From Mytilus edulis (Eukaryota): DNA of 64,000 bases. The notes below the pieces were generated by a model. That model was given only the letters and a program-made list of their open reading frames with translations. It was not told the DNA's origin and searched no databases. This document shows, one piece after another, positions 2,025 to 60,839 of this stretch. The translations under genes were made by a program, and so were the position numbers. Each line of letters opens with the position of its first letter. Position 1 is the stretch's first letter. The DNA is taken from assembly GCF_963676685.1 (NCBI RefSeq), contig NC_092349.1, positions 33,728,001 to 33,792,000 of the forward strand. Reading direction: 5' to 3'.

Positions 2025-2320
2025 CCACTTTTTGTGCTGACATGAATTATCATTGATATGGTTATATTTATAAATTAACTGTTTATAAAATTTTGAATTG
2101 TTTTAAATATTAAGGCTTTTCTACCTCAAGAATAGATTACCTCAGCTGCATATGGCAAAACTTTTAGGAATTTTGGTCCTCAATGCTCTTCAACATCGTA
2201 CTTTATTTGGCCTTTTTAATTTTTTTTGGATTCGAGAGTCACTGATGAGTCTTTTGTAGACGAAACGCGCGTCTGGCGTATATACAAAATTTAGTCCTGG
2301 TATCTATTATAAGTTTATTT
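2025..2320 (+). repeat. Partial retrozyme-like unit
   Basis: Similar to the 32673-33285 unit (AGATTACCT, TTTTGG.TCCTCAATGCTCTTCAAC, hammerhead, CCTGGTA). Confidence 0.75.
2234..2281 (+). ncRNA. Minimal type I hammerhead ribozyme
   Basis: GTCA-CTGATGA-GTCT(TTTGT)AGAC-GAAA-CGCGCG-TC-TGGC: intact core, helix II and palindromic helix III. Confidence 0.8.
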
Positions 2321-3589
2321 ATCCATATGAAGGTACATGTACAGATAGTTTTTTTTATCGCTGCAAAAATTCGTAGTTAAATACTTTTTTAAAAATCTTT
2401 TGTTTGAAGTCCTTTATATGTAAAAAAAACCATTCGAGATATAAAGCAGTCTTTCGTGTTGAAGTGGTATTTTTAATCCTGTTTAATGGATGCAATTGAC
2501 GATTTTAAAGGTGTAATAATTTCTACCTAATTGACCCTTATGGCTAATATTTCACTTCACAAGACCAATAGACAATGATAGATGTGGTCCAAGAGTACAA
2601 AAAACTGTAATTAAAACATTATAAATGACGACCGACCAATATCGATCTATAAACGAAAGAAGGATTCGAAGTTTGATATCAAGTTCACATTTTTTAGTTC
2701 GACATTCTTAATAATGATTTTTACATTCAATAGCATTATTGTTTGATGCCGTGTCTCCTGGAGCAACACCATATTTCTCTCAAATGAAAAACTAAGTATC
2801 GGGCGTCTACAACGTATAAAATTACCATGTGCTAATGATATATTGACGTGTTTGGTTGCGCTTGTCGTCATTTATTTAATACCTGTACTGTCTTATGATC
2901 TGTAATTACACCGATCGTAACCTTATCCCGATTCATAAATTTTCAAGACATTCGCATAGCTGGTGATGCATGCATATCAGTAGTCGCTTATTCTGTAGAA
3001 ACATCCGGTCTCACTCATTTTGGAGTTCCTTAAGTTTTTATTTGTAATCTTATGTAGTATCGTATTGGTCTGTGTACAAGATTTAAGAATCGGTAAACCA
3101 TGTCCATTAATGTTGTATATGGTTAAATAGACTATATTTGTATAAAACCAATGAGCTTTAGCTGGAAGTTTAAATTAAACTTCATTAAGTGTGAAGGTCT
3201 CTAAATATATTTCAGCTATATCTATGTTGAATACCCGAACTGTTGGAGAAAGAAGATTTCTTCAGAAAGCACTTGATTGAAACAAAACATGATCAGATAA
3301 AAATTGACTTGACCCTCAGTTGCAGATAATTTGCCATATATATGGATAACAGAAAATCAGCCATTGATTATGAACAAGACAAAATTTAACGGATAAAGAT
3401 TCGTAAAATTCTTCCATAGATTAGTGATGGCACGACGTAAAATTTACCATATATTAGAAATCTGCTATATATTTTGAACCCACCATTTATGTGATTCCTT
3501 CTTTTATGTTCTTAATTCCAGTAATAGAAAATCTAAAAATACGTGAATAAACAAATGTATTTTTGTTTCTGATTATCCATTTTTTAACA

Positions 3590-9600: not shown

Positions 9601-9941
9601 CAAAGCCATTAGCTTGTGATCTGTCGCAGACGTTTTCTTTGCAGGAGGTGGTGTTTGAAAAATAGGTAACTTATTCCTCTTTATTTTATAAAAGACAGAC
9701 GTTGTTCTATCAACAAGGTGTTCTTTCATATACTTTTCAAACTGTTCTTGTTCCAATGATTCTATTGTGTTAAAGGTTTTAACAACTGATATGTCAACAA
9801 TGTTCTTCGAATCTAAAACTAGCAAATCCTTACTTGTCTCTAAAAACGGATTTCCAAGATCATCAATTACATCATACAAAGACACAATGTCATTTCGAAA
9901 AGATTCTTGAAAGGATATTGTTTGTTCATGGTGAAGTTTAT

Positions 9942-10295: not shown

Positions 10296-12199
10296 TAGTT
10301 TCGTTAGTGTTCACAAAGCATTCAGTGATATTTTCAAATTCTCTTACCAACCTAGCCATTTCAGGCCCAGCAACCATCCATCTACGAAGCGCTCCTGGAT
10401 TTTCAGTCAATCCAACAGCACCACCATCTGCTTTAACACACGCATTATTTTGTTCGTGAGTTTGATCAATAGTTATACAGGAAAAATTCTTCTCGGTCTT
10501 CTTGACAACAAAGTTGCCGGCAAGGAATGCTTTTGGTTTCTGAATTCGTTTTTGGTAACTGAAGCATATCACGCAGATGAATTGGCAGCGATCGTAAATG
10601 GTTATTGTGATCATCCAAGGCAAAGAACCAAGGAATGGTCTTTGAGAGAGCTTCAATATACACATTTATAATAAAAAGTTAGCCTCACGTATAGACCTTA
10701 TAAATATTAATACTGTCAATTCAAATCGGAGAGGTATATACCAAAATTTAAAATGAGGAGATTCTTTAGATCGTCCCAAACATCATTCTTCAAATTTTAA
10801 GATAACCTCATCATCCCTCAAAACATGTGTGTATTGTCATCAAGCGTTTGACAAAAGACGGTAAAGTGCACATGCTGTAACTTGGTGTACTCTACGTGTT
10901 TTTTTGTAACATGAGAAAAGCCTTTAGGAATGAATCAGCTGTACCTGGTGATGTAACCTGTGCATTTATTAACACACTAGTCCATCCACTATCTTCAATC
11001 AACTACCAAGTGCTTTGAACGCATCCATTTCTATGTGCAGGCCACCGAACATCATTACAGTTTCACTGTATTAGTTTTGCTACTGTGAAAAGGGGTTGGT
11101 CAAAAGCAACAACTGGAGTTTGGCCTGGATGTAGCTTTCTTACAGCGCTACGAATAATGTTCAATGAGTGTCGTATCATTTCATTTTGCTTGCTCAAGAA
11201 ACAGAGGTAGAAGGGCAGACACTGCTGGTAATTTATTCCCATCTGACAGTACTGCAGCATGATAGGCGGACCATGAATATTTGTACCCACTTCTGCCCTA
11301 ACTCTTAAATTGTCTGCAACATGTTTCAGCCATTTGAATTCCCCTTTTAATGCAACTGGGAATGAGGACATATCAATTGAAAGTTCTCCTTCAACTATTG
11401 GAATATCTGGTTCGTTGACTCTTAGTACAGCTGGTGGTAGATTTGAATAACTCACTGGTAAAAGAGAAACTATATCAACATAGTTTCAGATTGGTCAAAT
11501 GCTTGAACAACGCCTTGAACATCCTCTGAAATATGTTGGAATAAAGATATACCTGAACCATGGAATGAATCTTTTGACGATATACTGCTTGGATTGTGAT
11601 CAATGTTGTCTACAGCAGATGAAGTGAATACATTTTACAAGATTGGTAGGGCAAACAATTCCGTCTTAAACTTAACGACGACAAGCATCATTGACCATTG
11701 AAGTAGAAATTTCTAACACTCGGTCGTAGGAGACATAGAGTCCGAGTTTGAAGAAAGTATCTACTAGATCACGTTTTCTAGTCTTACAGTGGATCATGAC
11801 TCCAACTGGAGGTTCATGATCTTTCATGTGACGGTTGGATAGTTTCTTTGTACAACTATACATCAGAAGCTGTGCTATTGTTAATGTCGACTGAAAATAG
11901 GAACGGTCCTGAATGTTGAGTCCAAACTGAATCATACTGATTAAAGAAAGCAATGACTAGGGTACAGACGCTTCCTGACATCCCTTTGGGAAGGTTCCTT
12001 TGAATTCTGAATTTGATGCGAAAAATATGTTTACGAACAAACGTAGCTGCTTTTGATATGTTGACAAACTCATTATCAAAGTCTTCTTAGCAGACTCTCT
12101 TCAATGCAGGACCAATGCCATCTTTGAAAGCAAGAATGTGTTCACGGCCTTGTTTGTAAGCTTCTAAGTCAGGGAAATGATATACAATTCTGACTTTAA

Positions 12200-12775
12200 G
12201 GTAGCACAATACAAAGATTTTTCATCCCCAATCAGACATCTTTAAACTGATGTAATTCCACTCATCCTTCTTTAAATTTAAAAAATGAGGAACCAAAAGA
12301 AAGAAGAATGATTAATCTTTTTAATTGTGATAATTTCATTATGACATAATTATTACATAATTAATTGTTATGTAATAAGTTGCTATCTTGTGATGTCCAT
12401 ACTTGAATGAATTTAGCTTCTTTGTTATGCATAGAATCCCGAAATATTTATAGATTCTTGCACAGCACAGTTTGACCTCCAAAACTGTGTCTCAGATTTT
12501 TCCTATTGTATTTCATTCTCTCATAAATCTTCAATGAAGTTTGCAACACCAATTCATAAGAGATCACTAAATTCAATGTGGTATAAAATTTGTTCTACTG
12601 ATGTTTTTGGAAATCTGAGACACAGTTTTGGAGGTCAAGCTGTGTTGTACAAGAATCTATAAAATATTTTGGGATGCTATAAATAACAAAGAAGCTAAAT
12701 TCATTCAAGTATGGACATCACAATATAGCAACTAATTACATAACAATTGATTATGTAATAATTATGTCATGAACT
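12200..12775. mobile_element. Foldback/MITE insertion in the Academ ORF with ~160-bp inverted arms
   Basis: 12341-12500 is the near reverse complement of 12612-12770. The left boundary begins TTAA|GGTAGCAC. Confidence 0.7.
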
Positions 12776-13482
12776 ATTAACTCGAGATGAAACATTTGCA
12801 CCTAGACACGTTATTCTTTCCGTATAAAGTTTACATAGATCTGAAAATTTGTAAACACTATAATTATGATCTCACCGCACGACCTTGTTTCATTCATATA
12901 AGAGACTAGTTCTGAAAATGCAAGCCATGGATTTGCCTTTCTTTCTTAGATTCGATACTATCATTTTTCATTTCAATTCGAGATGCACGATTATATAAGG
13001 AAACTAAACATTTAAATCACCAGCACTTAACTTTGCAAGCAATATTGTGTCATTTAATTTTACTGCACATTCTCTTACACATGTATCTTGTCTAAACTTG
13101 GAGGACTCGTGAAGGCCTTCTTGGCCATTTTCATTAAAGAAAAAGTACACAGACGGGTTACTGTTGGACTGAACGGAAAAGCTATGATAATGTCTAGTTT
13201 TCTTTTTAGGTGTGGTGGCTTCATCTATTCTCTCATGTGATGTTCGTTTTTCTGCTCTATTCAACTTTGTCTTGTTCAGTTTTAAGTTGCAAGATTTGTG
13301 CCAACAGGCCTTGTGATCAAGGAAAGACTGTGCTATTCCAGATACCTCATCTAATTTTTCAATACACACATTAATGCCTTCGGGCATCAATCGTAATGCA
13401 TGAAACTTCTTAATAATCTCAGCTAAAGATTGATAACCAGCCCCAACATTGAGACGTTTAGAATCAAATGGGCAGATCAGTT

Positions 13483-14454
13483 TGTCACGTACCGGGGGAA
13501 CGCAACTGCGTTACTCTGGGTTTCGTACCAGAGTCGTTTCTCTGGATACAGTCAAGGCTCAAGAATTGGTAGCGTTATTTTATCAACTGAATATTCGGAT
13601 TCTCTTTCTATTGATGCTGGGCGTCAAAATTAAGTAGGCTTTGGTATCAGACGAATAAAGCCAAGGATGATAATTATATTGACATCCCGGTATAATGCTT
13701 TATTTAATATCTGGATATACTTTTGCTTAGCCAGTGCTTTCTAAAAGCAACGAATTATTAATTATATACTGAGCCAGTGCTTTACTTGAAGCCACTGCTT
13801 TATATCTACTTTATTTGGGCCAGTGCGTGTGTTGGACTGTTTAATTGGTCTGAGTTACTTCTTTGCTCTTATTCAATGCTTCCCCGTCTGGAAATGCTTT
13901 ACCTTGTATACCGCCAATGCTTCTCTCTGAAGCCACTGCTTCTTCAGCAGCTATACTTAATTAATCACTTGGCTCCTTATTCAGGACCACTGCTTATAAT
14001 TCTAATTCAGAACTATAGATTAATCTCACCTTTCTTCTGTCTCTTCTTAACAATTCAACTGCTCAGCTTGAATTCCAAACCCAGAACAAACTGAACTGTG
14101 AAAACCTTGGTATATATAGTAAATTGTAGACTCGTCCATACAATAGACTATTCCAAAAACGACTTTATCACTAAAACGTTTTACAACACCTAATCATATA
14201 TGATATAACAAAGCACTATTGTGACGGTTATATACTTTGTAACAACTGATCATGATCGTGGGAATTCCGGATTTGTAGGTCAATTCCTGACCCCAAAACA
14301 TTTACTACTCACCCAGTAAAATGTAAACAAATCAAAAGTGAAAGTAAAACAATGTGTAAATAAATGAAGGGAATGAATGATATTTCTTTCTGTTGGACTT
14401 TACAATTGAATTATAAAATAAGCAAGAACCAGGTAAGTTTGCAAATTCATCACA
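13483..14454 (-). repeat. 3' LTR
   Basis: TGTCACGTACC ... TTCATCACA. About 98% identical by eye to the other LTR. Confidence 0.95.
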
Positions 14455-15272: not shown

Positions 15273-16053
15273 TCATCTTTTCCAGATTTCAGTTTCCTCT
15301 ACATCTTTTCCGTTTTCCTTGTATCTTCTAACCACTCTTCTTTCAACCAGCATCAATCCAGAGGTAGCTACTGGCCTGACAACCTGTGCTGGTACAAGGC
15401 TTGGGATGGTTCCAGTCGTAGTTGTCGTAACAGTTCTTAAGTCCATAGGCGGGGACGAGAACAACGGTGGTGATGGGTTTGACACGGAACTGTCATCTGA
15501 ATCAGTATCCATTATTCTCGGTATTAGAAACGAGCTTGACACAGGAGGTACCACTATAGTTGCAGTTGTGGTTTGTAACCTAGGCAATGCAAATCTCTTG
15601 GCTAATGGCTGTGGCCCTAACGAACTCTTTAGGGTATCTAGTAGTCTCTTCTTTGAAGAATTAGCCACCGGTATAGGAGACGTGCTCTTCCTGACTACTC
15701 TGCCTTTGATTAGTGATCCTGTAACCATCACTGATGTACCTGTTGTGCTTTTCGTGGATTTTGTAGGTTCTCCAAGGACATCCGATAGGGTGCCTGGATT
15801 TTGTTTCTCCCATTCACTATCGGTATCATCAATGGTTGACAAGGAGGCTGCATGTCTCCTCCTCTGGTGCCTCGTAAAATCACTCTCTCTGCTTGTTGCA
15901 TACGGACACCAATCACATAAGTACTCTTCTTCTGAAGACCTTTTCTTTGCACATCCTTTAACATGACCCTCCAATTCCTTCTCTGTTTGGAACCGTATTT
16001 TGGCAAACAGGGCACCTCCATCTTTCCCGTGGTGTCTTCTTTGTATTAGCCAT
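15273..16053 (-). pseudogene. Accessory ORF3 of the Gypsy element: C2HC + C2H2 zinc-finger protein with Ser/Thr/Pro-rich tail (~259 aa), one +1 frameshift near 15980
   Basis: ATG at 16053 gives MANTKKTPRERWRCPVCQNTVPNRE and continues ELEGHVKGC..YLCDWCPYATSRESDFTRHQRRRH (ORF 15273-15974). The span is 781 nt = 3n+1. Acceptor ttctcttatattacag lies directly before the ATG. Confidence 0.8.
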
Positions 16054-16124
16054 CTGTAATATAAGAGAACTCATTGTAAATATATACATGTATATACAAA
16101 ATTAAGTGTTATGTACAGTTATAC

Positions 16125-16660
16125 TTTCTATAAAATTGAGAATGAAAATGGGGAATGTGTCAAAGAGACAACAACCCGTCCAAATAAAAAACAACAGCAG
16201 AGGGTCACCAACAGTCTTCAATGTAGCGAGAAATTCCCGCACCCGGAGGCGTCCTTCAGCTGGCCCCTAAACAAATATATACTAGTCCAGTGATAATGAA
16301 CGCCATACTAATTTCCAAATGGTACACAAGAAACTAAAATTAAAATAATACAAGACTAACAAAGGCCAGAGGCTCCTGACTTGGGACAGGCGCAAAAATG
16401 CGGCGGGGTTAAACATGTTTGTGAGATCTCAACCCTCCCCCTATACCTCTAACCAATGTAGAAAAGTAAACGCATAACAATACGCACATTAAAATTCAGT
16501 TCAAGAGAAGTCCGAGTCTGATGTCAGAAGATGTAACTAAAGAAAATAAACAAAATGACAATAATACATAAATAACAACAGACTACTAGCAGTTAACTGA
16601 CATGCCAGCTCCAGACTTCAATTAAACTGACTGAAAGATTATGAACATCAGGCACTCGTT
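16125..16660. repeat. Dispersed repeat (Penelope-type tail) inserted between pol and ORF3
   Basis: Nearly the same sequence at 31610-32150 and 52415-52750. Shares the GACTTGGGACAGGC..GGCGGGGTT.AACATGTT block with 5385-5430. Confidence 0.8.
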
Positions 16661-16698
16661 TCATTCATTCATCATTTTTATTTATATTTTCTTTTACT

Positions 16699-19600
16699 TT
16701 AATCTTGAACATAATCATTTAACCAAGTGGGAGGCTTCCTTTCCCTTCTTAATCTTGGTAAATTAATGTGTTCGTCTTGTTCAATGGTCTCATATCTATT
16801 CTCAAAATCAAATTCAATTGGGGCACTTTCGTCAACAACTTGGGCTTGATCGTTCATTTCGGATACCTGATTTGACGGCTCGAGCCCTTGTAAACGCTCA
16901 CCTAATAATGGTTCACCTAACAACCGTTGATCCTTGCATCGTCTCATGCGATCAACATGAATCACTTGTGGTCGGCCCTTTCGGCCACAATATACTAGAT
17001 AGGTTACATCTGAGTATTGTTTTAGCACTTTAAAGGGACCCCGCCAATAACTTGTAAACTTAGGGGATTGGCCAAGCTTACGTACAGGAAAGAAAACAAA
17101 CACTTTATCATTTTTATTAAATTTATTCCAACTTAAATGTTTGTCATGATATTGCTTCTGTCGAAGCATTTCTCTGTTAACATGATTCTGTACAAACTGG
17201 TGGGCGTCTTCTATTCTTTCCTGTAACTCCAATACCCACTTGTTAGCTGGAATAGACTTCACTTCCCTTGGGAGTTCGTACATAATATCTACAGGAGTAG
17301 CTACTTCTCTTCCCATCATAATACGGTTCGGAGTGCTGCCGGTTGTTTCGTGTACAGATGTTCTGTAAGCCATCATCACATAAGGTAGAAGCTGATCCCA
17401 GTTTGTTTGATGTTCGTCCACGTACGCACTTAGCATTTTTACTAGAGTACTGTTGAACCTCTCAACCATACCATCGGATTGTGGGTGATATGGTGTTGTA
17501 CGGGTTTTGCTGATTTGTAGGAGGTTACACATTTCAGAGAAAAGCTCACTCTCAAACTGCGTTCCTTGATCTGAATGAATCAATGTAGGTACCCCGAATC
17601 TGCAAATAATTTCTGTTACTATGATATTTAGAACCGTTGATGCTTCCATGTTCTCCATGGGAAAGCTTTCTGTTCATTTTGTATAGTAATCAGCTGTCAC
17701 CAGTATGTATTTATTGTCGTTGGCGGTTTTTGGCAACTCGCCCAAAATGTCGACGGCTATCCTTTCCATAGGAAAGCCTGACCTTTGAATCTGCATTGGC
17801 GCTCTCTTTCGTTTTTGTAGGCCTTTCCTTCTTACACAGGTCTCACATCCTGTTATGTAGGCCACCACATCACGACGCATTCCAGGCCAATAAAACCTGT
17901 CTTTTAATCTTCCTAATGTTTTTCTTATCCCGAGATGTCCCGATGTCTTATTGCCATGGCATTGCTGTAAAATGACGCGCCTTTCTTTAATGGGTACGAT
18001 GACGCGTAGTTTGCCTCCCGTGCATTGCTCTTTGCACAATAAACCGTTATCAACTTTCAATGTTTCGTATTGCGACCATAAACTCTTAACTGCATAATTA
18101 CATTCCCCAATTTCTTTGAAAAGCGGTTTCTTGCCATTTATTACCCAAGTCTTTATCAAGGATATGTTTTCATCTTCTTGTTGTAGCACCAACAGCGTCT
18201 TATTTTCATCACTCCCATCATTTATACAGATAGCTATATAGCTGCTTCAGTCACCTCTATAGGGGGTGCTTGTGTAACAACATTAACACGTACTAGTTTC
18301 TTCTCCCAGTCTTGTTCGAAGCCACATTGTTTACATGGCATTCTGCTAAGGGCATCAGCATTTCTGTGTTGATTTCCAGGTCGGTGCTTAATTTTCATGT
18401 TATACGAACTAAGGACTTCCAGCCACCTCGCAAGCTGTCCTTCTGCGTTCTTAAAATTCATTAACCACTGCAGAGAGCTATGGTCGGTTCTGACAACAAA
18501 CGTTCTTCCATACAGAAAATGCCTAAAATGCTTAACAAAATGAACTACGGCGAGTAACTCTTTTCGTGTTACGCAATATTTACGCTCGGTCTTCGAAAGT
18601 GTACGGCTACCATAAGCAATAACCGTTTCTTTTCCGTCTATTTCCTGGGACAGGACTGCTCCAATTGCAGACTGACTTGCGTCTGTATCGAGTATAAAAG
18701 GTCTCGAAAAATCTGGATGTGACAGTTATTGCGCTTCGAGGAGCTTGGATCTCTGAAACGCATCTTGACACTTCTCAGTCCACAAGTATTCGCGACCCTT
18801 TTCCGTTAATTTGTGCAAACATTTTGCAATGCCTGCAAAATTTCCAATGTATCTCCTATAATATCCGCACAGGCCGAGAAAAGAGCGCAACTCGCTTATA
18901 TCTTTCGGTTCTGACCATTGCTTAATAACCTCCACTTTTTGTGGATCCGTTGCTACACCATCCTCACTTATTACATGTCCAAGGAAGGACACTGATTTTG
19001 CAAACAACGAACACTTTTTGAGTTTTAACTTTAACCCGGCGTCAATCAATCTATCAAAAACCTGTCTCTTCAAAATTTCTGCCAACTACAATAATGTCAT
19101 CCAAATATACTAAGCAAATGTTCCACTGTAGTCCAGCCATAAGTCTTTCCATTAACCGCTCAAATGTTGCCGGAGCACAGGCGACCCCAAACGGCATTTT
19201 ACGAAATTGGAAAAGTTCCAGCCGTGTCGCGAACGCAATTTTAGGGCGGTCACTCTCTTCTACCTCTACCTGCCAATAACCTGAGCAAAGGTCTAAAGTT
19301 GAGAACCACTTGTTGCCAGCTAGCTGCTCCAATGAATCGTCTATTCGAGGTAACGGATACGCGTCTTTTACCGTAAGGTCATTGAGTCGACGATAATCGA
19401 CACAGAAGCGAGTCGATCCGTCCTTCTTTTTCACAAGTACGATCCCTGATGACCAAGGCCCTTCAGACGGCTCGATCACGCCTCGTTCTAACATATTGTC
19501 AATATGTTTGTCAATTTCGTCGCGCATGGCTACCGGTGTCCGCCGAGGTGGTTGTTTGACAGGATAATTTGTTCCGATGTTGATGCGATGACGTACAATA

Positions 19601-19704
19601 CTAGTACATCCGAGATCGTTATCAGACAGCGCAAAAAGCGACTTGTATTGCTGCAAACAGTTAGTAACTTGATGTCTCTGCTTCTCAGTCAAATGGGAAC
19701 TTGC
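16699..19704 (-). pseudogene. pol: pol: reverse transcriptase, RNase H, integrase (frameshifts and stops)
   Basis: RFCVDYRRLN, YPLPRID, LDLCSGYWQ, MPFG, YLDD. RNase H TDAS..IGAVL and RTDH. Integrase H..GHLG..C..C, SDQG.QFES, YHPQSDGMVERFN and WRGPF. Confidence 0.95.
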
Positions 19705-21762
19705 TTAATTGACCAGCTTCTGCAGTTCGTTGTCAAGTTTTGGATTTTTGTGTTCTTTACTGGTGTTTCCAGTCATGGTGATGACATCTTTTACTGGGCT
19801 TATTTCTCCAACAATGGTTCCGGCTCGTATTGTTGTAACATTATTTGAAACATTTAGCAATCTAATTGGCACATGTTCTCGTGCTTCAACTAGGGTCTTT
19901 GCCAGTAAAGCGTTGTCCCTTTTTACAGACCTCTCGCATGGCTCAATAATGCCTATCTGTAGTTTACTGGTTAACGTATCATAGTCATTAATCCTACCAC
20001 GTGAAAAAGCTTCTGTTCCTGGTGGTATACTGATATCCTCTAAGGCTGAAATTCTGTAACAGCCTATTTTTCCAGAAAACGCCATAGGATATGTGTTACT
20101 TTTGCATTGAAGGGTTTCTTGTTGTAAATCTATTTTGCAATTATTCTTTTTCATAAAATCTAAACCCAGTATCCCGTCAATAGATATGTCGGCAACCAAA
20201 GCTTCAACTATAAACTTGTCTTGTCCAATCTCTATACAGAACATTCCCTTACCAGCTATGCTTAGCTCTGTTCCATTTGCCGAAATAATGACTTGGGTTA
20301 TTGGTTCAAGTTCCGGTCGTTCCTTTTTCTGTATTCTGTAAAACAAAGCGTGCGAAACTAAAGTTACTATGGCACCAGTGTCTATTAAAAACTTGATAAG
20401 CTGGTTATGAACGGCGACGTCAATGTACGCACCAGCTTCCATGTTTGAAGCATCTGCTCCCACGTTAATTTTTCTTCTTTCCATCCTCCTGTGCCGACTG
20501 TTGTAGTGTAAAGGCCGCACTGCTCCGTTTCCTCTACCATTGTTTCCATTGTAAGGCTTCTTAGGAGCTCTACATTCATTTCTAAAATGTCCAAATCTTC
20601 CACAATTGTAGCACTGTATCTTGTCTTTCCGTCCAGGCATATGAGTATCAGAGTCTTTCCTTGTCATATCGCTTTTAAAATTATCAAGGTCCTTTTGGAG
20701 GGATTCAATTTTTGTTGAAAAGTCATCCATCATTTTTGCCATTTTATCGTAAGACTCATTTGGTTCTGTGCATGTGGCGCGCAAATGACCTCTGCCAGTG
20801 TCGTATTTTCTTTCAGCCTTGTAAAAAGCTTCTAATTCTACGGCAAGACATATTGTTTGATTGAGGTTTTCCGGCCTAGATTGTTTTATCCTTATTCTCA
20901 TCTGTGAATCCACAAGAGAATCTAAAAATTGTTCCCTTGCTAAAGTTTCTTTAACCTCGCTTGGTGCGTTGGGATAAGCCTTGTTTACCAATCTTCTTAT
21001 GGCCTGACCAAGCTCCGGCAAACTTTCACTTGCTTTTTGTCTTCTTTCTTTTAATTGTACTCGGTACAACTCAGTCTGGTTTGGAGGCGAAAATCTTTCT
21101 TGCAATGCCTTTATTAAGGTATTATAATCCATTCTTTTCTCAGTAGGTAGATCACTAAACACTCCCTGTGCTTGTCCTCTTAAAGCTGTTGCAAAGTACA
21201 GACCCTTCTCTTGGTCATCCCAGTTGTTGATCACCGCACAGGCATCAAAATGTGACTTAAAATCGCTCCATTCACTCGTTCCATCATAGTTGGCAAGCTT
21301 AATTTCGCGCCGTGTCTTCCCGTGGCTAGGTTTGTCAGCGGAATTAGTGTTGCGGACTTGCTTGTTTTGGCGTAATTCTTCCCTCAGTATCGGTGATACA
21401 TCTGGCATCGGCATTGCTTCGGTTCCTGTTTCTTTCTTTGTGGTGTGTGTCTTCTGCGTTGTCTGTTCTTTTGGCCGCGCTCCTTTATAGTCCGTCTTTA
21501 TAGTGGTAAATGGCCCATATAAACGTGGCACTTCGGGTGTTGGAACATTCCGATCTGTACCGACACTGGCACGCTGCGTATTTTGCATGAAATCGCCGTG
21601 ACGCGTTTGAATTATACCAGAGTCACTTAAACCTTTTACTGGGATTTTTGGGGTAGAATGTAAATTTGCACTTGGTCCCTGGCTCATTACAGTCTGCATT
21701 CTATCGCTTGATTCTTCTTCTAACAAACTTATTTGCTGCTCTAACTCATTATACTTGTCCAT
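19705..21762 (-). CDS. gag: gag-protease (N-terminal part of a single gag-pol frame; in-frame stop at 19705-19707)
   Basis: 685 aa. Capsid-like RRQKASESL, zinc knuckle CYNCGRFGHFRNEC, aspartic protease FLIDTGA..GILGLDF. The RT frame continues in phase after the TAA. Confidence 0.93.
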   Translation of the reverse strand: MDKYNELEQQISLLEEESSDRMQTVMSQGPSANLHSTPKIPVKGLSDSGIIQTRHGDFMQNTQRASVGTDRNVPTPEVPRLYGPFTTIKTDYKGARPKEQTTQKTHTTKKETGTEAMPMPDVSPILREELRQNKQVRNTNSADKPSHGKTRREIKLANYDGTSEWSDFKSHFDACAVINNWDDQEKGLYFATALRGQAQGVFSDLPTEKRMDYNTLIKALQERFSPPNQTELYRVQLKERRQKASESLPELGQAIRRLVNKAYPNAPSEVKETLAREQFLDSLVDSQMRIRIKQSRPENLNQTICLAVELEAFYKAERKYDTGRGHLRATCTEPNESYDKMAKMMDDFSTKIESLQKDLDNFKSDMTRKDSDTHMPGRKDKIQCYNCGRFGHFRNECRAPKKPYNGNNGRGNGAVRPLHYNSRHRRMERRKINVGADASNMEAGAYIDVAVHNQLIKFLIDTGAIVTLVSHALFYRIQKKERPELEPITQVIISANGTELSIAGKGMFCIEIGQDKFIVEALVADISIDGILGLDFMKKNNCKIDLQQETLQCKSNTYPMAFSGKIGCYRISALEDISIPPGTEAFSRGRINDYDTLTSKLQIGIIEPCERSVKRDNALLAKTLVEAREHVPIRLLNVSNNVTTIRAGTIVGEISPVKDVITMTGNTSKEHKNPKLDNELQKLVN

Positions 21763-21802
21763 TTTTAATATTTTATTTAAAATATATCCAGAGCCTTGCT
21801 GT

Positions 21803-21820
21803 ATCCCACCGCTGCCACCA
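21803..21820 (-). promoter_or_regulatory. Primer-binding site complementary to tRNA-Leu 3' end
   Basis: - strand TGGTGGCAGCGGTGGGAT. The + strand ATCCCACCGCTGCCACCA equals the 3' end (with CCA) of metazoan tRNA-Leu(AAG/TAG type) as recalled. It lies 7 nt from the LTR. Confidence 0.85.
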
Positions 21821-22449
21821 CAAACTGTGTCACGTACCGGGGTTACGCAACTGCGTTACTCTGGGTTTCGTACCAGAGTCGTTTCTCTGCATACTGTCAA
21901 GGCTCAAAAATTGGTAGCGTTATTTTATCAACTGAATATTCGGATTCTCTTTATATTGATGCTGGGCGTCAAAATTAAGTAGGCTTAGGTATCAGACGAA
22001 TAATGCCAATGATGATAATTATATTGACATCCCGGTATAATGCTTTATTTAATATCTGGATATACTTTTGCTTAGCCAGTGCTTTCTAAAAGCAACGAAT
22101 TATTAATTATATACTAAGCCAGTGCTTTACTTGAAGCCAGTGCTTTACTTGAAGCCATTGCTTTATATCTATTTTATTTGGGCCAGTGCGTGTGTTGGAC
22201 TGTTTAATTGGTCTGAGGGTACTTCTTTGCTCTTATTCAATGCTTCCCCGTCTGGAAATGCTTTACCTTGTATACCGCCAATGCTTCTCTCTGAAGCCAC
22301 TGCTTCTTCAGCAGCTATACTTAATTAATCACTTGGCTCCTTATTCAGGACCACTGCTTATAATTCTTATTCAGAACTATAGATTAATCTCACCTTTCTT
22401 CTGTCTCTTGTTAACAATTCAACTGCTCAGCTTGAATTCCAAACCCAGA

Positions 22450-24465: not shown

Positions 24466-24523
24466 GTTGTATAAAGAACTATGAGCATAAATTGGTTCAT
24501 ATATTCCTCGTGGATAACTTGTG

Positions 24524-24572
24524 TATGCCAGACGCGTGTTTCGTCTACAAATGACGTATCAGTGACGCTTGA
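24524..24572 (-). ncRNA. Degenerate hammerhead motif (core CTGATAC)
   Basis: - strand GCGTCA-CTGATAC-GTCATTTGTAGAC-GAAA-CACGCG-TC-TGGCAT. The core is mutated, so probably inactive. Confidence 0.55.
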
Positions 24573-24714
24573 ATCGAAAAAGTCAACAAGACAAACAAAA
24601 TGTATGTAATTCAAGATTTGATGACCTGAAATCCTGAAATTTTCACATAGCGCAAATATTTGTTGATTGTTAATAGCTTTCTAGATATACATGATATAGT
24701 GTTTGAAAAAAAGA

Positions 24715-30145: not shown

Positions 30146-31607
30146 TCTTTTACTTTTACATGAAAAAAAAATACAAAATCAATCTTGTACCCTTGCAACA
30201 ATTTTGTGATGGGCCAGGAGTTGGTCAGTTGCAAGGCATAATTTCTGTTACAATTCAATGTACCGTTAGTTTACAGTGGCAGCAAAATAAACTAACCGAC
30301 CTTCATTCCTAATGGCTTCCACTACATGACCTATTTATGATATTTTGTTCTCGTCATTAAAAGGAATGAAACATTTATCACTAGATGTTAAGCAAAGAAC
30401 AATCAGGTAAAAGGGGACAAATTCTATATGAAAAAAAAAGATTATTTTTTTTTATTGAAAAGTCGTGTACATTGATCTTTATGATTGTCATAATAAATAT
30501 TATCCATCATTGATCATTCAATGGATAAATGGAGCACAGGGAAGTCAATATTTCAACAAGCCTGATTTTTAAACAACCATATGATTTTTATACCTTTGTA
30601 CAATACATTTTGTTTTCTGATTTGTCCAGTGTATTATTATTTAAGCAAAATACAAATATATTTTGAAACTGAATTCGCTGCTAATCATAAAAAGTAGTGT
30701 TGTCAAATCGTTTAGTTTTTTACTAACCAGTTACTCGGATAAGCATTCGATCGGTTAACCGGTAGTCTAAGTTGATGTCTGGCGTACTAAATGATAATCC
30801 TGGTACCTTTGATAACTATTATCTATTGTACTCTTTATAATAAGATTAATGAAAGTTTGTTCTTTCGCATTATAAGGCTTGTCTGTGAGGATTCCTGGTG
30901 AAAATGAACAATATTTACATCGTGTCTATACTTTGGCGTTTGTAATTACTCCATATTGAAAATAAAAATGAAGCCTATGTTACTCGAACCATCAAGTATA
31001 CATTAATTTCATCCACATTTCATATTTTAGAGTTGGCTTTTCGTTTAAAGTATGACAAAGCTTTATGATGGAGGTTGCACATTCAGATGCAGGTCTTTTA
31101 AATATTAGATCAAAAGTAAAATAATGAAGTAAATCGTAAAGTTTAATCGGATTACTGATTTAAAGTTACTGTTTAAAAAAACATATATAATTATGTTTAC
31201 TTACGGTCTTGTCCCAAGCTGATCGACAAGTTGCTTAAGTTAGTTCTCGTTCATTTTATGTTTATTGAATAAACAAAAGCAATCAATGTACTTGACAATT
31301 GATCTGTCAAATTTATTACCAAGTTGATAATTTTTAAATAAAACAAAGTTATTAATTATTTCAATACACATTTATATAATATCTACTAAAAATTACAAAA
31401 AGTCCTGTTATCGTGGGGTCTGACTAATTTTGCCTGAAATCTTTACTATACTGTCGATGTGAATTTATGTATACATTTATTGAATATATTCAATATTTGC
31501 TATAATGAAAAGGAAAATTTACAATGTTAAAGTGAAAACATAAAAAGTTACTTTCTCCAAAACGTTTTTTTTTTTTTATCAAAATAACAAAGTAAAGCAT
31601 TATTTGA

Positions 31608-32535
31608 TTAATAAAATTGAGAATGGAAATGGGGAATGTATCAAAGAGACAACAACCCGACCATAGTAAAAACAACAGCAAAAGGTCACCAACAGGTCTT
31701 CAATGTAACGAGAAATTCCCGCACCTGGAGTCGTCCTTCCGCTGGCCCCTACACAAATATATACTAGTTCAGTGATATATTTCCAAATTTCGAAATTGTA
31801 CACAAGAAACTAAAATTAAAACAATACAAGACTAACAAAGACCAGAGGCTCTTGACTTAGGACAGGCGTAAAAATGCGGCGGGGTTAAACATGTTTATGA
31901 GATCTCAACCCTCCCCCTATACCTCTAGCCAATGTCGAAAAGTAAACTCATGACAATGCTTACATTTAAAATTCAATTCAAGAGAAGTCCGAGTCTGATG
32001 TCAGAAGATGTAACCAAAGAAAATAAACAAAAAGACAATTATACATAAATAACAACAGACTACTAGCAGTTAACTGACATGTCAGCTCCAGACTTCAATT
32101 AAACTGATTGAAAGATTATGATTTCATCATATGAATATCAGACACAATCCTTCCCGTTAGGGGTTTAGTATCATACCATCATAACATATATATGAGAAGA
32201 ACATAACCCGTGTCATGCCAACAACTGGTTTTTGAATAAATGTTTTTAGTTCCGATGCAAAGACCCTATAAGTCAATCAATATTAACGCCAAAATATGCA
32301 ATCTTTAATGACCTGACACCAGTATCATAACTATATCCCTTCTTAATGAGTCTATTTAAAGGTTATGTTATTATTTTCTGCGGTGAATACTGACATGTTT
32401 GTGCTTTATAAAAAATATTTCCATAAGCAAAGTGGATGTGAAATATTTAAACGTAAAAGAAGTCTGCATGTTGAGCTATATTTACGAATGATGTCCTTAT
32501 ACCGATGATAAAATTTAGTAAATACTTTGCTAGAA
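31608..32535. repeat. Longer copy of the 16125-16660 repeat family
   Basis: Starts ATAAAATTGAGAATGGAAATGGGGAATG like 16129. The shared end is fixed and the other end variable. The right boundary is approximate. Confidence 0.75.
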
Positions 32536-32849
32536 TTAAAATGTATTATTATTTAGTTTTCCGACATTAATTGGTATATTAATTTAGTGAATAATGTTGA
32601 ATATTTGCACACTTTAAGCTTATTTTGTGAGTATAAATTGATTCTGTTGTGTAAAAAAAAAACGAAAAGCTCAATGTGGTCATTTTTATAAATTTCCTGT
32701 TTACAAAACTTAGAATTTTTCGAAAAACTAAGGATTTTCTTATCCCAGGCATAGATTACCTTAGCCGTATTTGGCACAACTTTTTGGAATTTTGGATCCT
32801 CAATGCTCTTCAACTTTGTACTTGTTTGGCTTTATAAATATTTTGATTT

Positions 32850-32897
32850 GAGCGTCACTGATGAGTCTTATGTAGACGAAACGCGCGTCTGGCGTAC
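32850..32897 (+). ncRNA. Minimal type I hammerhead ribozyme (predicted cleavage after 32889)
   Basis: CGTCA-CTGATGA-GTCT(TATGT)AGAC-GAAA-CGCGCG-TC^TGGCG. Helix I CGTCA/TGGCG. Confidence 0.9.
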
Positions 32898-33204
32898 TAA
32901 ATTATAATCCTGGTACCTTTGATAACTTTTTACACCACTGGGTCGATGTCACTGCTGGTGGACGTTTCGTCCCCGAGGGTATCACCAGCCCAGTAGTCAA
33001 CACTTCGGTGTTGACATGAATATCAATAATGTGGTCATTTTTATAAATTTCCTGTTTACAAAACTTTGAATTTTTCGAAAAACTAAGGATTTTCTTATCC
33101 CAGGCATAGATTACCTTAGCCGTATTTGGCACAACTTTTTGGAATTTTGGATCCTCAATGCTCTTCAACTTTGTACTTGTTTGGCTTTATAAATATTTTG
33201 ATTT

Positions 33205-33252
33205 GAGCGTCACTGATGAGTCTTATGTAGACGAAACGCGCGTCTGGCGTAC
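33205..33252 (+). ncRNA. Minimal type I hammerhead ribozyme (predicted cleavage after 33244)
   Basis: Identical motif 355 bp downstream of the first. Confidence 0.9.
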
Positions 33253-33293
33253 TCAATTATAATCCTGGTACCTTTGCTAACTTTTTTCATCAG

Positions 33294-33450
33294 ATAAGTT
33301 TAACAAGGTACCAGAAATTGGAACTGAAATGTCGCCATCAGATGAAACGGCAGCCCCAGATAAATTCATATCTAATGAAACCGAAATTCTGTCAAAAAGG
33401 TGTACGGATCAAGGAAATTCTCTAGAAACAAAAACGTTCCAATTGCATAC
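33294..33450 (+). CDS. Candidate host exon, 5' part (interrupted)
   Basis: gctaacttttttcatcag| acceptor. Phase 1 matches the 26455-26622 exon. Reads DKFNKVPEIGTEMSPSDETAAPDKFISNETEILSKRCTDQGNSLETKTFQLH. Confidence 0.55.
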
Positions 33451-34363
33451 AAATAAAGGCAACAGTAGTATACCGCTGTTCAAAACTCATAAATCCATGG
33501 ACAGAAAAACAAAATCGGGTTAACAAACTAAAACCGAGGGAAACGCATTAAATATAAGAGGAGAACAACGACACAACATTTAAATGTAACATACACAGAA
33601 ACGGACCAAGCATCAGACAGAATCCCACGATAATAACAAATATAATATCAAAACCAAATATTTGAAATTGGGATAGACAAGTACCGTGACACGTCTTATC
33701 GTAATGTGAATTTACACTAAAAAATAAGAGAAAACAAACGATGCAACGTTAAAATGTAACACACACAGAAACGAACAATAATATAACAATGGCCATGTTC
33801 CTGACTTGGTACAGGAGATTTTTAAAGGAAAAAATGGTGGGTTGAACCTGGTTTTGTGGCATGCCAAGCCTCGCACTTTAATGGCAATGTTAAATATAAC
33901 ATTGAAATGACAACATGATATTACAGGACTTCAATACAAATAAATAGGAGAACGTATTAGACAAAGAAACACATGATTAATAGGTAACAAAAAGCATCAG
34001 GTTTAAAATTCAATCCTTATTATTTAGAACAATTACTGCTATTGCAAACAGTTAATTTTATCAAATGAATATAACAGATATACATAATGAAACTGAAGTA
34101 TTAACTATTTACAGAAAACAAAACCCGAATACATAATCCAAAGACCAACACAGAATAGACACACCCGACTCAGTCCAGGCCTCTTAGCAATAAATCATAA
34201 AAATGACGTCACATACGAAGTGGTGAAACCGCACAAAAATTACGTCACATTTGAATTTATGAAATTTTTGAAACAGCACAAAAATGACGTCACATATGAA
34301 AAACTATATCTCAAAAGTAAGATAGAATTAGGATTGATTTAAGATTATAATAGAACTAAATAC
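33451..34363 (-). mobile_element. ~910-bp repeat insertion splitting the exon
   Basis: Same family as 9942-10295. ATAC occurs at both junctions (33447-33450 and 34360-34363). Confidence 0.75.
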
Positions 34364-40195: not shown

Positions 40196-40635
40196 GTAAG
40201 TTTAAAATAACATTCACTGCAAACAATGTATTGATTATAGTCATTGTATATATTCATGTTTTAACGCGGTCAACTGTTTTTCTAGTAAATTTTGACCTCC
40301 AAGGATAGACTGATTGCTATATGGTAAACATCTAAATGCCATATAATCCTAACGCCACATTTTGAGATTTTACACCATAGTTTATAGCAGGTTCCATATT
40401 ACCGTCGAAATTCAGACTTTGATGCTTTCAATATACTCACCAATCGTTAATTCATTTAGTAAGAGAACATAATTTATGAAGCGCAAAAGTGAAGATAAAG
40501 GTTATGGCTAGGTTTTTTTTCATTCTACCTAATAATCCCTTGAATGTAGTCAGTCTCTTATTGATAAAAGAACCAGTCGGAAAGAAGAGGATCAAAGTTT
40601 GGGTTCACGGGAATGCCAATTTTGTGTTTGGTCTC

Positions 40636-41184
40636 AAAACGTTACAAATATGTTGTCAATTAAGAAATCAATCATTCTGATAATGTCAGTTTCAGAGAAT
40701 GTGTTTGAATCAGAGTAATTTTTATACGAGTTCGATTTATTCGTCCATAAGAAAAAATCCTTTTTTTTTTATTATTTTTAAAAAAATACTTGTATTTCCG
40801 CTGGCTATCTTAAAAAGACATAAAAAAGGACAAACTCTTTTAATTTGTGTTGGAATTGGAAATACTTTTGTAAAGTATAGAAAATTTCATTGATTTTTAT
40901 ACTATTGTCTGAAAACGTTACAAATATGTTGTCAATTAAGAAATCAATCATTCTGATAATGTCAGTTTCAGAGAATGTGTTTGAATCAGAGTAATTTCTA
41001 TACGAGTTCGTTTATTCGTCCCTAAGAAAAAATACTTTTTTTTAATTATTTCTAAAAAAAAATACTTGTATTTCCGCTGGCTATCTTAAAAAGATATAAA
41101 GAAGGACAAACTCTTTTAATTTGTGTTGGAATTGGAAATACTTTTGTAAAGTATATAAAATTTCATTGATTTTTATACTATTGT
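40636..41184. repeat. Tandem duplication, ~276-bp unit x 2
   Basis: AAAACGTTACAAATATGTTGTC at 40636 and 40912. A few substitutions and indels between copies. Confidence 0.9.
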
Positions 41185-50293: not shown

Positions 50294-50368
50294 CACTGAT
50301 GATTATTATGTAGACGAAACGCACGTCTAGCGTATAATTTTTATGCCTGGTATCTTTGATAACTATTT
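50294..50368 (+). ncRNA. Degenerate hammerhead plus retrozyme tail
   Basis: CA-CTGATGA-TTATTATGTAGAC-GAAA-CGCACG-TC-TAGCGTA...CCTGGTATCTTTGATAACTATT. Helix II is disrupted. Confidence 0.55.
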
Positions 50369-52099
50369 ACACCTATTGTTTAAAGATCTTTATGAAATTG
50401 CAATCCATTACTTTCTTTAGCTTTGCGTTAATTTATAGAACTTTATACGGAAACAGGAAAGTGGAAAGAAACTTTATACCTTAATACACAACATATAAAT
50501 AAACGTAGGAACATGCGTTCCGTACTTTATACTACGTGTGACGTAATACACAAGTTATTCATAAACAAGAACACGTAACGTTACATTTGGCGCGCTATAC
50601 TGAAACTAAGTATAAACAAATACAAAATGAATAATTACACATATAAATAGAGTCGATATATAGATTTAAAGAAGTCAGCATATAATATAAGGTCAAAGTA
50701 AGCTATTTCTTCTGTAAAATACGAATCCGAACACAACAACGGACATCTGCGTGTATCGATCAAGTGTGGAACGGAGACAACAGTAAAAATATCAGCTTTC
50801 AAATCACCGGAGCGAAACAATATATCAGAAAATATAATAAAAATATTGTATTTAACATCTGTTGAAAACATCATTTATTTAGTCAGGGGCGTTACTTACA
50901 CAAACCATCTATTTTATTTACTCATATAGGTAATTTTTGCTTTTAAAAATTATAAGATTACTCAATATCACCCTAAAAAATATAGAGATGAAATGTTACT
51001 TTAAGACTAATGACAAATATAGGACTTGCATAAATTATTTTATACATATTTGAAAGAAAATTACAAACTATTACATACGTTATCTATTTGGGTTACAAAT
51101 TATAGATAACTTCGAGTCTTTATTTAATCAGCAGTTAATATCTGTTTATATCTGTCGACCTTCAAATTTTAGGAAAATTATATTTTAAAGTCTCAGGAGA
51201 CAAATGTTTTACATAGAAGCGTCGATGTGAAGACAAGTGCGTGAGCGAAGCAGTAGGTGTTTCGTGAGGATAAATCTTGTTTTATATTTTAAGGGGAAAT
51301 GTACCATATGTGACTGTGAAACTTTGTTGATGATTTTAAAAACTGATGATTAGACACCTTTAAAAATAATATTAAGAAAACTTTGAAAAATACAGAATAT
51401 TTGTCCGTTGTAAAAGGAATTTCCCGCGCAAATCGGAAAACGTCACGTGTTACATGTATTACGCGTATATTTATGGTATCTTCGCTTGGTGTACAATTGG
51501 TTTGGTAAATAATTGTCATATTATTCCTTGTCTTTTTCTCAATACGGAATAAATTCATGTCTTGGTTTCAGTGCATATATGGTTTAGTCGACTTTAAAAG
51601 AAATGATATTCACTTTGACCCTTTGGCCGTTGGCTATAGTCCTCAGTGAATATCTATTTTTCAAAAATCAATTAAACTGTTTTTTCACTTGATCAAAAGA
51701 CAGTATTATTATGTTATTCGATAATACTGAACTATGAGAATAATCTTCAATTTATAGAATACACGGCGTTGTTAAGAAATGCGGATTTATGCATAGAGTA
51801 GAAGATTATTCGTCCAGCTTGTAAAATTTTTTGTTAACATAACAATCCACCATCGTTACCTAAGCTCTAATGATAGAGTTATCATGCATAGAGGACTGTG
51901 TTGTGTTAACAGTATACAGACAATTTCTGTTTTTCCTGACCAACAACAAACATTGTTAGAGATTAAGACAAAAAACATAACTTTTGATTTCATCTTTTTA
52001 TGTTTACATCTACAAACTTATGTATAAAGAGTAGTCTAAAGCATTTAACAGATAAGTATTCCAACCTCCCTTTTGAAAAGGAACAGTTCCATGAATTTA

Positions 52100-52352
52100 G
52101 TAATCAAAGGTACCAGGCTTATGATTAGAAGCGCGTTATGTCTACACCATAGTCATCAATGACGCACAGTTAAAAATAATAGTTAGAAAGCCAATTAATT
52201 ATGAAGTTGAAGACCAAAAATTCAAAAAAATTATTCACAAATACGGCTCCAGTAAGCTCTGTCTGGGATAACAAAATCCTTAGTATTTCGAATAATTTTT
52301 GCTTCTGTAAACAGTCAATTTATAAATTTCCCATATAATTGATGTTCATGTC
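52100..52352 (-). repeat. Decayed retrozyme-like unit
   Basis: Reverse complement resembles the 355-bp unit (ATCAAAGGTACCAGG, GCGCGTT..GTCTAC, TCATCA.TGACGC, AAAATCCTTAGT). Confidence 0.6.
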
Positions 52353-52414
52353 AGACGGCTTAGACAATTCTTAAAATTTAATGTACACAAATATGTACAA
52401 ATTAGTTTTAAACC

Positions 52415-54893: not shown

Positions 54894-55294
54894 TGAATGG
54901 TCTTTCCACCCGAAACTAGATATTTATTGATACAAAAATATTCAAATCCGGTTTGAAATGCAATTTCCAGTGTCATATGATAGCTTATTTTATGCCAATT
55001 AAAAAAATATATGGTTTCTATACTTAAAAAAAAAAGGATATAATTTGTTACTTGCGGTTTGCAGAATGTCATTTTAAGTATAATTGGATAGTTGAATGGT
55101 CTTTCCACCCGAAACTAGATATATATTGATACAAAAATATTCAAATCCGGTTTGAAATGCAATTTCCAGTATCATATGATAGCTTATTTTATGCCAATTT
55201 AAAAAATATATGGTTTCTATACTTTAAAAAAAAAGGATATAATTTGTTACTTGCGGTTTGCAGAATGTCATTTTAAGTATAATTGGATAGTTGA
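54894..55294. repeat. Tandem duplication, 199-bp unit x 2
   Basis: TGAATGGTCTTTCCACCCGAAACTAG at 54894 and 55093. Near identical. Confidence 0.9.
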
Positions 55295-59495: not shown

Positions 59496-60839
59496 ATTAT
59501 TGTTTACTGTTTAAAAAAAAATTTTCAATATGGAATGTTTTTTCCTTACACATTGATAATTTTCCCAACCAAGATTTGACCTTATTTCTTTTATCCCGTT
59601 ATAGTTTAAATATCTCTTCTTTGTATAAGGTTACCTCGAAAAAGACATCATTTGCATAAATGTGCATCGTGTGTTGTAAAATGTGTACTGTTTATGTTAT
59701 ATCACATTATATTTATGTTATCTATATTGCAAGAAGATCAATTATCTTCAAATATGGTAAGATATTATACATATAACACGTATTACCTACAGGGATATAC
59801 ATGACTTATTTAGTTATTTCCATATTGTATAGATATAGTTATATATAAAAAAAAAAATTCAAAAGACGGCTGAGTTTTGTTTTTTTTACAGAGTCTTCTA
59901 AATGCTGTTATAACCGGGAATTTGAAAAGAATCAGACAGTGTCTTGACCAAGGCGGCACGTTTGTAGCTTCAAAGGTAGAGATTATATAATGATTTTTTT
60001 GGCCAGAAATGTACAAATAAACTCTCCATAGATACCAGGGTTACCATTTTGTATGTCAGCCAATAGTTTAGTTTACAAAAAGACTATCAGTGACGCTCGA
60101 ACACAAAATGTTAAAACAATACAAAGATGAAGGGGATATAACAGTCTTTGATGAATATTTTATAGATAGTTTTCACAGCGTACGAAATGAAAATATTTCA
60201 TTTGAGATATTGACAGATTAACAATTGATTATCAAGCAAACACTGCAGCAAATCAACTTCAGATGCGACAATACATTGCGCTATGACATCACTATCACTT
60301 AATTTTGGCAAAAGCTGTTTATCTTTTAGTACTGTTGCACAGTCGATTAATCATTGGCATTGCCTCTCTTAAAGCGGACAAATGCGGCTCTATATCATAA
60401 ATGAAACATAAAGTTGTTGGTCTTTCATTTAAACGTTTAAAGAACTTACGTCCAATCTTAATTCCTAAAGGCATTGGCGATATTTGACGATTCTGTTCTC
60501 TCTCAAGGTTTCAATTGTTCAGTGGTATTCTGTAAAATTCTGGCCTGATTTTTTCAATTCTCTCTCTAGATGGATATAGAGTATATCTACTTCATGAAAA
60601 AGAGGGATACCTTTGCCCAAAATTTTATATCCTAAATCTAACGAGTAAGTTTGTGATGCTCAATTTGAAACTCTCTACTTTTATTTCCAGTATCAAAGGT
60701 TACATGAACTGATTTAGATTTTCGTATTCTATAATACTTAAATTGTCTTCTTGAGATCATGGTTTTTAATGCCACACTTTTAAACCCGTAGACTACTATG
60801 TGCCTTTTTCATGTTACAGTACAATTATTTTTTTATCAA

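Follow-up and report, generated by a model that had tools for sequence, protein, structure and literature searches.

The locus and its hammerhead ribozymes

The window, a 64,000-nt stretch of Mytilus edulis contig NC_092349.1, carries a tandem retrozyme insertion on its forward strand (Table 1). Comparing the window sequence with itself uncovered a 265-nt direct repeat (32673-32937 and 33028-33292) with a period of 355 nt and five differences between its copies, two of which fall beyond the end of the element. The 5' end of the insertion lies at an arbitrary phase, unit position 139, and its 3' end, at about 33283-33287, is the fixed end of its family. Because the array comprises only 1.75 units, it holds a single full monomer between cut sites. 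The GUC triplets end at 32889 and 33244, which bears out the 355-nt monomer that a preliminary description, made from the letters alone, had placed at 32890-33244. The same description had reported two identical type I hammerheads 355 nt apart and a cUUCGg hairpin at 32996-33015. Positions 32852-32895 do equal 33207-33250 at a period of 355 nt, the hairpin was found as stated, and all coordinates given there proved right.

Table 1. Retrozyme features and related elements in the 64,000-nt window.
Feature	Position	Strand	Remarks
Retrozyme insertion	32673..33287	+	1.75 units of 355 nt
Type I hammerhead 1	32852..32895	+	predicted cut after C32889
Self-complementary ACGCGCGU	32881..32888, again 33236-33243	+	could give 8-bp helix III between two hammerheads
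Predicted released monomer / circle	32890..33244	+	355 nt, 38.6% GC
Position where most family copies end; putative RT start	32927..32932	+	+38 to +43 after cut site
Bulged stem-loop common to 5' end of one Naiad family (L291 type); putative RT-recruitment signal	32937..32994	+	58 nt
8-bp hairpin, cUUCGg loop	32996..33015	+	GTCAACAC-TTCG-GTGTTGAC
Type I hammerhead 2, identical to hammerhead 1	33207..33250	+	predicted cut after C33244
Tail after last cut site	33245..33287	+	~40 nt, ends in A/T-rich flank, without target-site duplication
5'-truncated Naiad 3' end (RT C-terminus + 3' UTR)	31735..32535	-	head to head with array, ~140 nt away
Subfamily B copy, shorter than one unit	2034..2323	+	one intact hammerhead at 2236, without hairpin, without second hammerhead
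Decayed or short retrozyme fragment	24514..24598	-	
Tail-only retrozyme copy	30777..30820	+	~45 nt
Decayed or short retrozyme fragment	50294..50373	+	
Decayed or short retrozyme fragment	52091..52353	-	
Decayed or short retrozyme fragment	60027..60132	-	

The unit is non-coding and lacks an LTR, PBS or tRNA part; its longest sense open frame, read on the 355-nt circle, is 50 codons, and no tRNA was found within 32000-34000. A 94-codon antisense frame (32902-33186) is disfavoured as coding because 1-nt indels are frequent among copies. In the circular fold, the hairpin at 32996-33015 has pair probabilities of 0.99-1.0. Its stem is kept in the sister subfamily by one two-sided change, but the UUCG loop is not kept. 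The element's tail and the right flank together form a 19-nt imperfect inverted repeat (33265-33314) with GGTACC in both arms, which may be chance or target-site microhomology.

All core bases of the hammerhead are present in both motifs: CUGAUGA, a helix II with a 5-nt loop, GAAA, and a helix III made of the conserved A-U pair plus C-G under a 4-nt GCGC loop. In the covariance search that the preliminary description had put forward as a check, both motifs matched Rfam RF00163 (Hammerhead_1) at 33 bits (E 2.9e-6), one bit below the gathering score of 34; an Rfam scan of the window at gathering level gave no match. Helix III had been described as a palindromic CGCGCG. The palindrome exists, but it extends over 8 nt, ACGCGCGT, at 32881-32888. 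The reading as a minimal hammerhead that cleaves as a dimer did not hold. In the available part of PMC4209133, the minimal hammerhead of Penelope-like elements (PLEs) has a helix III of conserved bases only, a helix II of 7-8 bp and a helix I of 4-5 bp. With a helix III of 2 bp plus 4-nt loop, a helix II of 4 bp and a helix I of 6 bp, the motif here is ruled out as the minimal type (min-HHR). It is the canonical invertebrate form of the same source, for which a dimer is possible and not required.

When two juxtaposed hammerheads were folded, the palindrome paired, both cores stayed open and the energy reached -29.5 kcal/mol, compared to -9.2 kcal/mol for each alone; by prediction, a palindrome-paired dimer is stable. 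For a single motif the active fold was predicted at -5.7 kcal/mol, that is 3.5 kcal/mol above the minimum of -9.2, and the predicted probability of helix I was near 0 both in the circle and in local context. This disfavoured active fold agrees with the slow published rate of a cloned mussel repeat, which self-cleaved at ~0.1 per min, and with the remark in the same partly available source that in some mussel circles the predicted structure would block the ribozyme (PMC7229834). The fold of the whole monomer was no better than that of shuffles (z -0.25 linear, -0.48 circular).

Other elements surround the insertion in the window. A Ty3/Gypsy LTR retrotransposon (15273-21855, reverse strand) has gag, protease, RT and integrase in broken frames; behind it comes a frame of 265 aa that weakly matches a C2H2 zinc finger. 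Several broken frames at 8300-13500, also on the reverse strand, belong to a long protein resembling that of a DNA transposon; three of these frames were scanned against Pfam without a match. Young tandem duplications of two copies each lie at 40631-41184 (276 nt, overlapping weak RT similarity) and 54894-55294 (199 nt).

The family in the genome and in RNA

We searched the 1.37-Gb assembly with its 14 large contigs for relatives of the 355-nt unit. With 40 out of 1,495 candidates scored, each of the 14 large contigs carried copies 96-98% identical to it. One exact 30-mer of this unit, which we call subfamily A, occurred 5,073 times, with 0 occurrences of a control. A sister subfamily, B, gave 2,369 matches to an internal 43-nt pattern with up to 2 mismatches; its units are mostly 348-374 nt long and 85-87% identical to the subfamily A unit (6 of 6 compared). 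Aligned by eye, subfamily B copies differ at 2 of ~100 nt from the M. galloprovincialis retrozyme of 375 nt published as Additional file 11 of PMC4918200. Judged by this likeness, the printed retrozyme is a member of subfamily B, sister to the unit at the locus. The locus itself belongs to the non-LTR retrozyme family already published from Mytilus, and the preliminary description had recognised a retrozyme-like unit of the kind known from mussels. The RF00163 matches, unit size, GC content, copy number and kinship to the printed sequence all support this assignment. A tandem unit of 355 nt falls in the 150-450 bp range of retrozymes, and 38.6% GC is below their 50%.

Both subfamilies retain hammerheads. 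A pair of intact hammerheads spaced by one unit was seen in 2 of 29 arrays of an unbiased sample, from which two-hammerhead copies probably number several hundred genome-wide. Four further loci (L138:6307, L140:2605, L150:123 and L063:589) hold a third hammerhead repeat family with the core CUGAAGAGACAU...GUCGAAA and a different tail.

The ends of family copies are strongly patterned. Of 30 tails taken in sequence along C1, 26 end between +33 and +47 from the cut site, whereas the other four continue into a further unit; upstream extents in these matches range from 17 to 530 nt, and most copies are shorter than one unit. In a second count, 42 of 56 segments end at +33 to +48, with split arrays included and responsible for several of the misses; segments under 60 nt, below 85% identity, at locus edges or duplicated were dropped from this count. 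The 5' ends are scattered, and the cut site is not a preferred position among them (17 at +1 versus 28 at -2, of about 5,000). The lack of a pile-up there implies that the template runs through the cut site. An apparent excess of 5' ends at the cut site in a best-match sample was traced mostly to short undetected extensions, with no genome-wide excess. Target-site duplications were not consistent in 26 arrays, where the candidates were 3-10 nt in A/T-rich DNA.

On all chromosomes the copies share one 3' end and differ in their 5' ends, the pattern left by target-primed reverse transcription that begins at a fixed internal position. Such a reaction from an internal start has been demonstrated in vitro for Poseidon in the available part of PMC11167929. 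It is very improbable that the family is instead a satellite-like repeat that grew at the DNA level, through unequal exchange or extrachromosomal circles, with incidental ribozymes. Local tandem growth has been proposed for retrozymes in the available part of a preprint (bioRxiv 10.64898/2026.07.22.740005), and units inside an array are alike, yet the distribution of ends, with most copies shorter than one unit, largely refutes this explanation, and the RNA is strand-biased.

That bias came from four RNA-seq runs, chosen by species label and mapped to 32500-33700. Within the unit's unique middle part, sense reads outnumbered antisense reads about 5-11 to 1 in all three stranded runs, a family-level ratio that assumes the usual dUTP direction. 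Sense depth was flat across the unit, with the middle similar to the cut site; antisense and unstranded reads peaked at the hammerhead, a profile that read-through of truncated copies would give. Loose read ends numbered 352-422 at 32927 in each run, with further ones at 32931-32932, and give the same end as the genomic copies. Among the read ends listed, there was no pile-up at the cut site. Since the flanks of 32673-33287 had no read cover and nearly all reads carry C where the locus has T32949, the RNA can be assigned to the family only and not to the locus. Two candidate readings were discarded: T32949 as a locus-private marker was wrong, as it is present at other loci, and the element's 3' end as the branch point for an exon from 33294 found 0 reads on 33320-33442 in all four runs.

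The sense reads fit a full-unit RNA, either circular or uncut tandem, and short reads do not separate these. In one rival reading the element and helper are the same but uncut linear multimeric RNA serves as template; hammerheads and circles would then be dispensable for copying, a side effect by which the RNA is stabilised or parasitised. For Poseidon, the available part of PMC11167929 reports normal insertion by ribozyme mutants and uncut RNA as the main substrate, and the genomic ends, like the reads, do not separate circle from tandem. Unit distance is 2.4% within an array (48 pairs) versus 5.0% between arrays (813 pairs), and in nine of nine multi-unit arrays between 2 and 14 rare variants are common to units of the same array. 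Two of these nine, L015 and L025, have units 5-6% apart, nearly as diverse inside as outside, which suits an uncut template. Against it stands L030, with 8.7 units at 0.8% internal distance and 14 shared rare variants, as do the retention of hammerheads in both subfamilies and the dominance of circles in mussel tissue (PMC7229834, available part). On balance we regard an uncut template as unlikely and a circular one as the better reading.

Two loci preserve insertions within other elements. At L291:1590-1618 (reverse strand), a 28-nt retrozyme tail lies inside one of two duplicated stretches of Naiad 3' UTR, so that a filled and an empty site stand side by side without target duplication. At L103:1127-1846 and 6692-7423 (reverse strand), a retrozyme dimer stands in antisense inside an EN-less PLE, within its repeat unit, whose duplication copied the dimer as well.

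A stem-loop in common with a Naiad family

Naiads are the dominant retroelements of bivalves. One locus, L291, holds an intact 1053-aa frame with YVGET at 192 (N-terminal GIY-YIG), CDC at 484 (CxC), GPKF at 519, DKA at 611 and YIDD at 898 (C-terminal RT), and no CUGANGA-GAAA core in sense. By its predicted protein sequence this ORF has the features that define Naiads in the available part of PMC8557442, which describes the clade as lacking canonical hammerheads. Read depth over the ORF was low and unstranded. The labels "family 1", "family 2" and "L291-type" used for Naiads are our own.

The 58-nt stem-loop of the retrozyme starts 5-10 nt past the family's fixed end and is kept between subfamilies A and B by two two-sided changes. 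A model of this hairpin built from retrozymes only and applied to 22 Naiad loci recovered one inserted retrozyme and one Naiad site, L291:5416-5501 (E 0.012), with no match in 10 control loci of other PLEs. In the converse search, a model from 16 Naiad copies alone had a single significant site in the 64-kb window, at 32928-32999 (35.6 bits, E 1.3e-7), and matched subfamily A and B units at E 1e-7 to 1e-9, with no match in 7 loci of other PLE clades or at two other Naiad junctions.

The L291 hairpin has GTCGATGTCA, CTGCTGGTGGA and TCCCCGAGGG in common with the retrozyme unit and carries an extra 24-nt arm. Its outer stem is kept by three two-sided (compensatory) changes between retrozyme and L291 Naiad, with 99% of cells paired; these represent three events between two lineages, and a pair-count control for them was not significant (213 of 500 shuffles). 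The two-part hairpin motif occurred in 0 of 200 shuffles of L291. Outside the hairpin, unit and L291 have nothing in common except one short inserted retrozyme tail.

Position provides a second line of evidence. Thirty loci conserve the Naiad hairpin, and in 27 of them the sequence runs on into the GIY-YIG ORF. Copies of the L291 family end 5-7 nt before the hairpin, loose read ends lie at L291:5499-5502, and 12 of 19 genomic matches of the family end within 14 nt of the hairpin. Relative to the fixed end, the hairpin's position agrees between the retrozyme and the L291 family within a few bases; an RNA element at equal distance from the fixed end, the mark of a non-autonomous Naiad partner, is thus present for this family. 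Two further young Naiad families (~40% RT identity) carry, in the corresponding place, a looser stem-loop whose core is similar, and family 1 ends just before its own. Neither model detects the stem-loops of these two families, and their own model misses the retrozyme. At the level of sequence, the link between retrozyme and Naiad hairpin shows common origin without showing present-day use.

The young family 1 frame at L054:2000-5000 is interrupted by TGA at conserved cysteine positions. TGA at such positions has been described for selenocysteine Naiads of clams.

The preliminary description had proposed mobilisation by Penelope-like RTs such as those whose remnants lie in the window. A PLE helper does look likely. 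The remnants themselves, at 6080-6664, 32249-32528, 57984-58482 and 62130-63022, are Naiad-type rather than hammerhead-bearing Penelopes and belong to Naiad families other than the one matching the hairpin. The truncated Naiad at 31735-32535 is probably a separate, older insertion.

Could the helper be another PLE, either a different Naiad or a C-terminal-EN Neptune or Penelope with a pLTR ancestral to the unit, and the hairpin a relic? In the available part of the Xenopus study, 24 of 57 retrozyme families match known TEs, nearly all of them PLE pLTRs (bioRxiv 10.64898/2026.07.22.740005). Several C-terminal-EN PLE families, intact and equipped with hammerheads of their own, are present in the mussel genome, our PLE searches scored 150 candidates each, and the hairpin may have been taken long ago by an element that now uses another RT. 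Nevertheless, no pLTR-like match to the unit appeared in 50 GIY-YIG loci (30 + 20 C-terminal-EN PLE loci), 20 EN-less PLE loci or 36 Naiad RT loci; none of 30 unbiased arrays follows a C-terminal-EN ORF; and the placement of the hairpin next to the fixed end is that of the L291 family. A comparison of Naiad 3' UTR with the unit gave no homology. EN-less (20 loci) and C-terminal-EN PLEs (30 + 20) were accordingly set aside as helpers, as they showed only inserted copies, mostly antisense or isolated. We judge a helper outside the L291 family to be unlikely.

EN-less PLEs have been described as mostly telomeric. At L087-L106 we observed many young tandem PLE families with intact 550-730-aa RT frames from which the endonuclease is absent, at internal chromosome positions.

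Proposed mechanism and comparison with known systems

Taken together, we assign a probability of roughly 0.6 to the reading that the locus is an intact 1.75-unit retrozyme copy of a family that likely spreads as a 355-nt circle copied by the RT of the hairpin-sharing Naiad. Read-through or internal transcription would yield RNA with two hammerheads, in line with the sense RNA observed at family level. Both hammerheads would then cut after GUC, as monomers or as a palindrome dimer; such cleavage is in print for a mussel relative and is expected here by analogy. A host ligase of the RtcB type could close the monomer, as it does with the 353-nt Mg353 monomer in vitro (PMC7229834, available part). 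The fixed ends and the Poseidon precedent suggest that a Naiad protein would bind the stem-loop at 32937-32994, nick A/T-rich DNA and start cDNA 5-10 nt 5' of the stem-loop. From there the RT would presumably copy the circle in the 5' direction, crossing the joined cut site and continuing round until it falls off. Insertions made in this way would have one fixed 3' end and variable 5' ends, and some would be partial tandems. With the signal located 3' of the point where cDNA begins, a copy would have to span nearly a full turn or more to inherit it. Release of a new circle would be possible only from copies with two hammerheads, like 32673-33287.

We find it reasonably probable that the full chain operates, with a Naiad of the L291 family binding the hairpin, starting cDNA just 5' of it and copying round the circle. 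We also lean towards a broader view in which mussel retrozymes are parasites of one Naiad family, whose RT start signal they copied and joined to a hammerhead that Naiads lack. If this is true, the ribozyme makes so small an element heritable by closing its RNA into a circle, for a signal located 3' of the start is retained only when the RT goes round. Enzyme, signal and start base would then be named for the rolling-circle retrotransposition of an animal circular RNA.

The element itself is already known, and 32673-33287 is an ordinary intact copy of a published family. Its interest lies at the family level, where the enzyme that mobilises animal retrozymes has been an open question since 2020. 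With the hairpin and an intact Naiad ORF in one genome, an in vitro test could be built on a specific protein, an RNA signal of 58 nt and a predicted start base, and the hairpin would be the first candidate cis signal for Naiads.

Known systems are compared here from the available parts of the works cited. For the mussel retrozyme, Cervera and de la Pena (2020, PMC7229834) reported about 5,000 hammerheads in two families with 350-390-bp repeats. The family was cloned, cleaved, circularised and blotted in M. galloprovincialis, and its circles were abundant in gonad and mantle. The copies studied here agree with it in the 350-390-bp tandem unit with one type I hammerhead each, low GC, ~5,000 copies and two subfamilies, as well as in a hammerhead without the usual loop-loop contacts (PMC7229834; Cervera et al. 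2016, PMC4918200). A difference is that the unit at the locus is subfamily A, of 355 nt, a comparison made with the printed 375-nt sequence rather than the Mg353 clones. Within their available parts, PMC7229834 and PMC4918200 name no helper and do not describe the fixed end or the hairpin, and a 2020 review states that the repeats show no conserved motif indicating a helper (PMC7761336). Literature searches for the Naiad-retrozyme link returned no work that states it in its accessible portions.

Naiad PLEs (Craig et al. 2021, PMC8557442) share with the retrozyme 5' truncation, partial tandems, A/T-rich targets and no clear target-site duplication, and one Naiad family has the retrozyme's 58-nt stem-loop just past its fixed end. 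Unlike the retrozyme, Naiads are autonomous (GIY-YIG + RT) and without canonical hammerheads. Poseidon of Anolis (Frangieh et al. 2024, PMC11167929) is alike in mechanism: its RT begins within the RNA at a point downstream of the hammerhead cut site, requires RNA 3' of that point, and thereby sets the genomic end. However, Poseidon is autonomous, with a C-terminal EN, a minimal protein-assisted hammerhead and two start sites. For vertebrate retrozymes, PLEs have likewise been argued to be the mobilising elements (Li, Clavereau, Pollet 2026, bioRxiv 10.64898/2026.07.22.740005), in a study that sampled no mollusc, as far as its available part extends. There the link is pLTR homology to hammerhead-bearing PLEs, whereas in the mussel it is one short RNA structure in common with a hammerhead-free clade.
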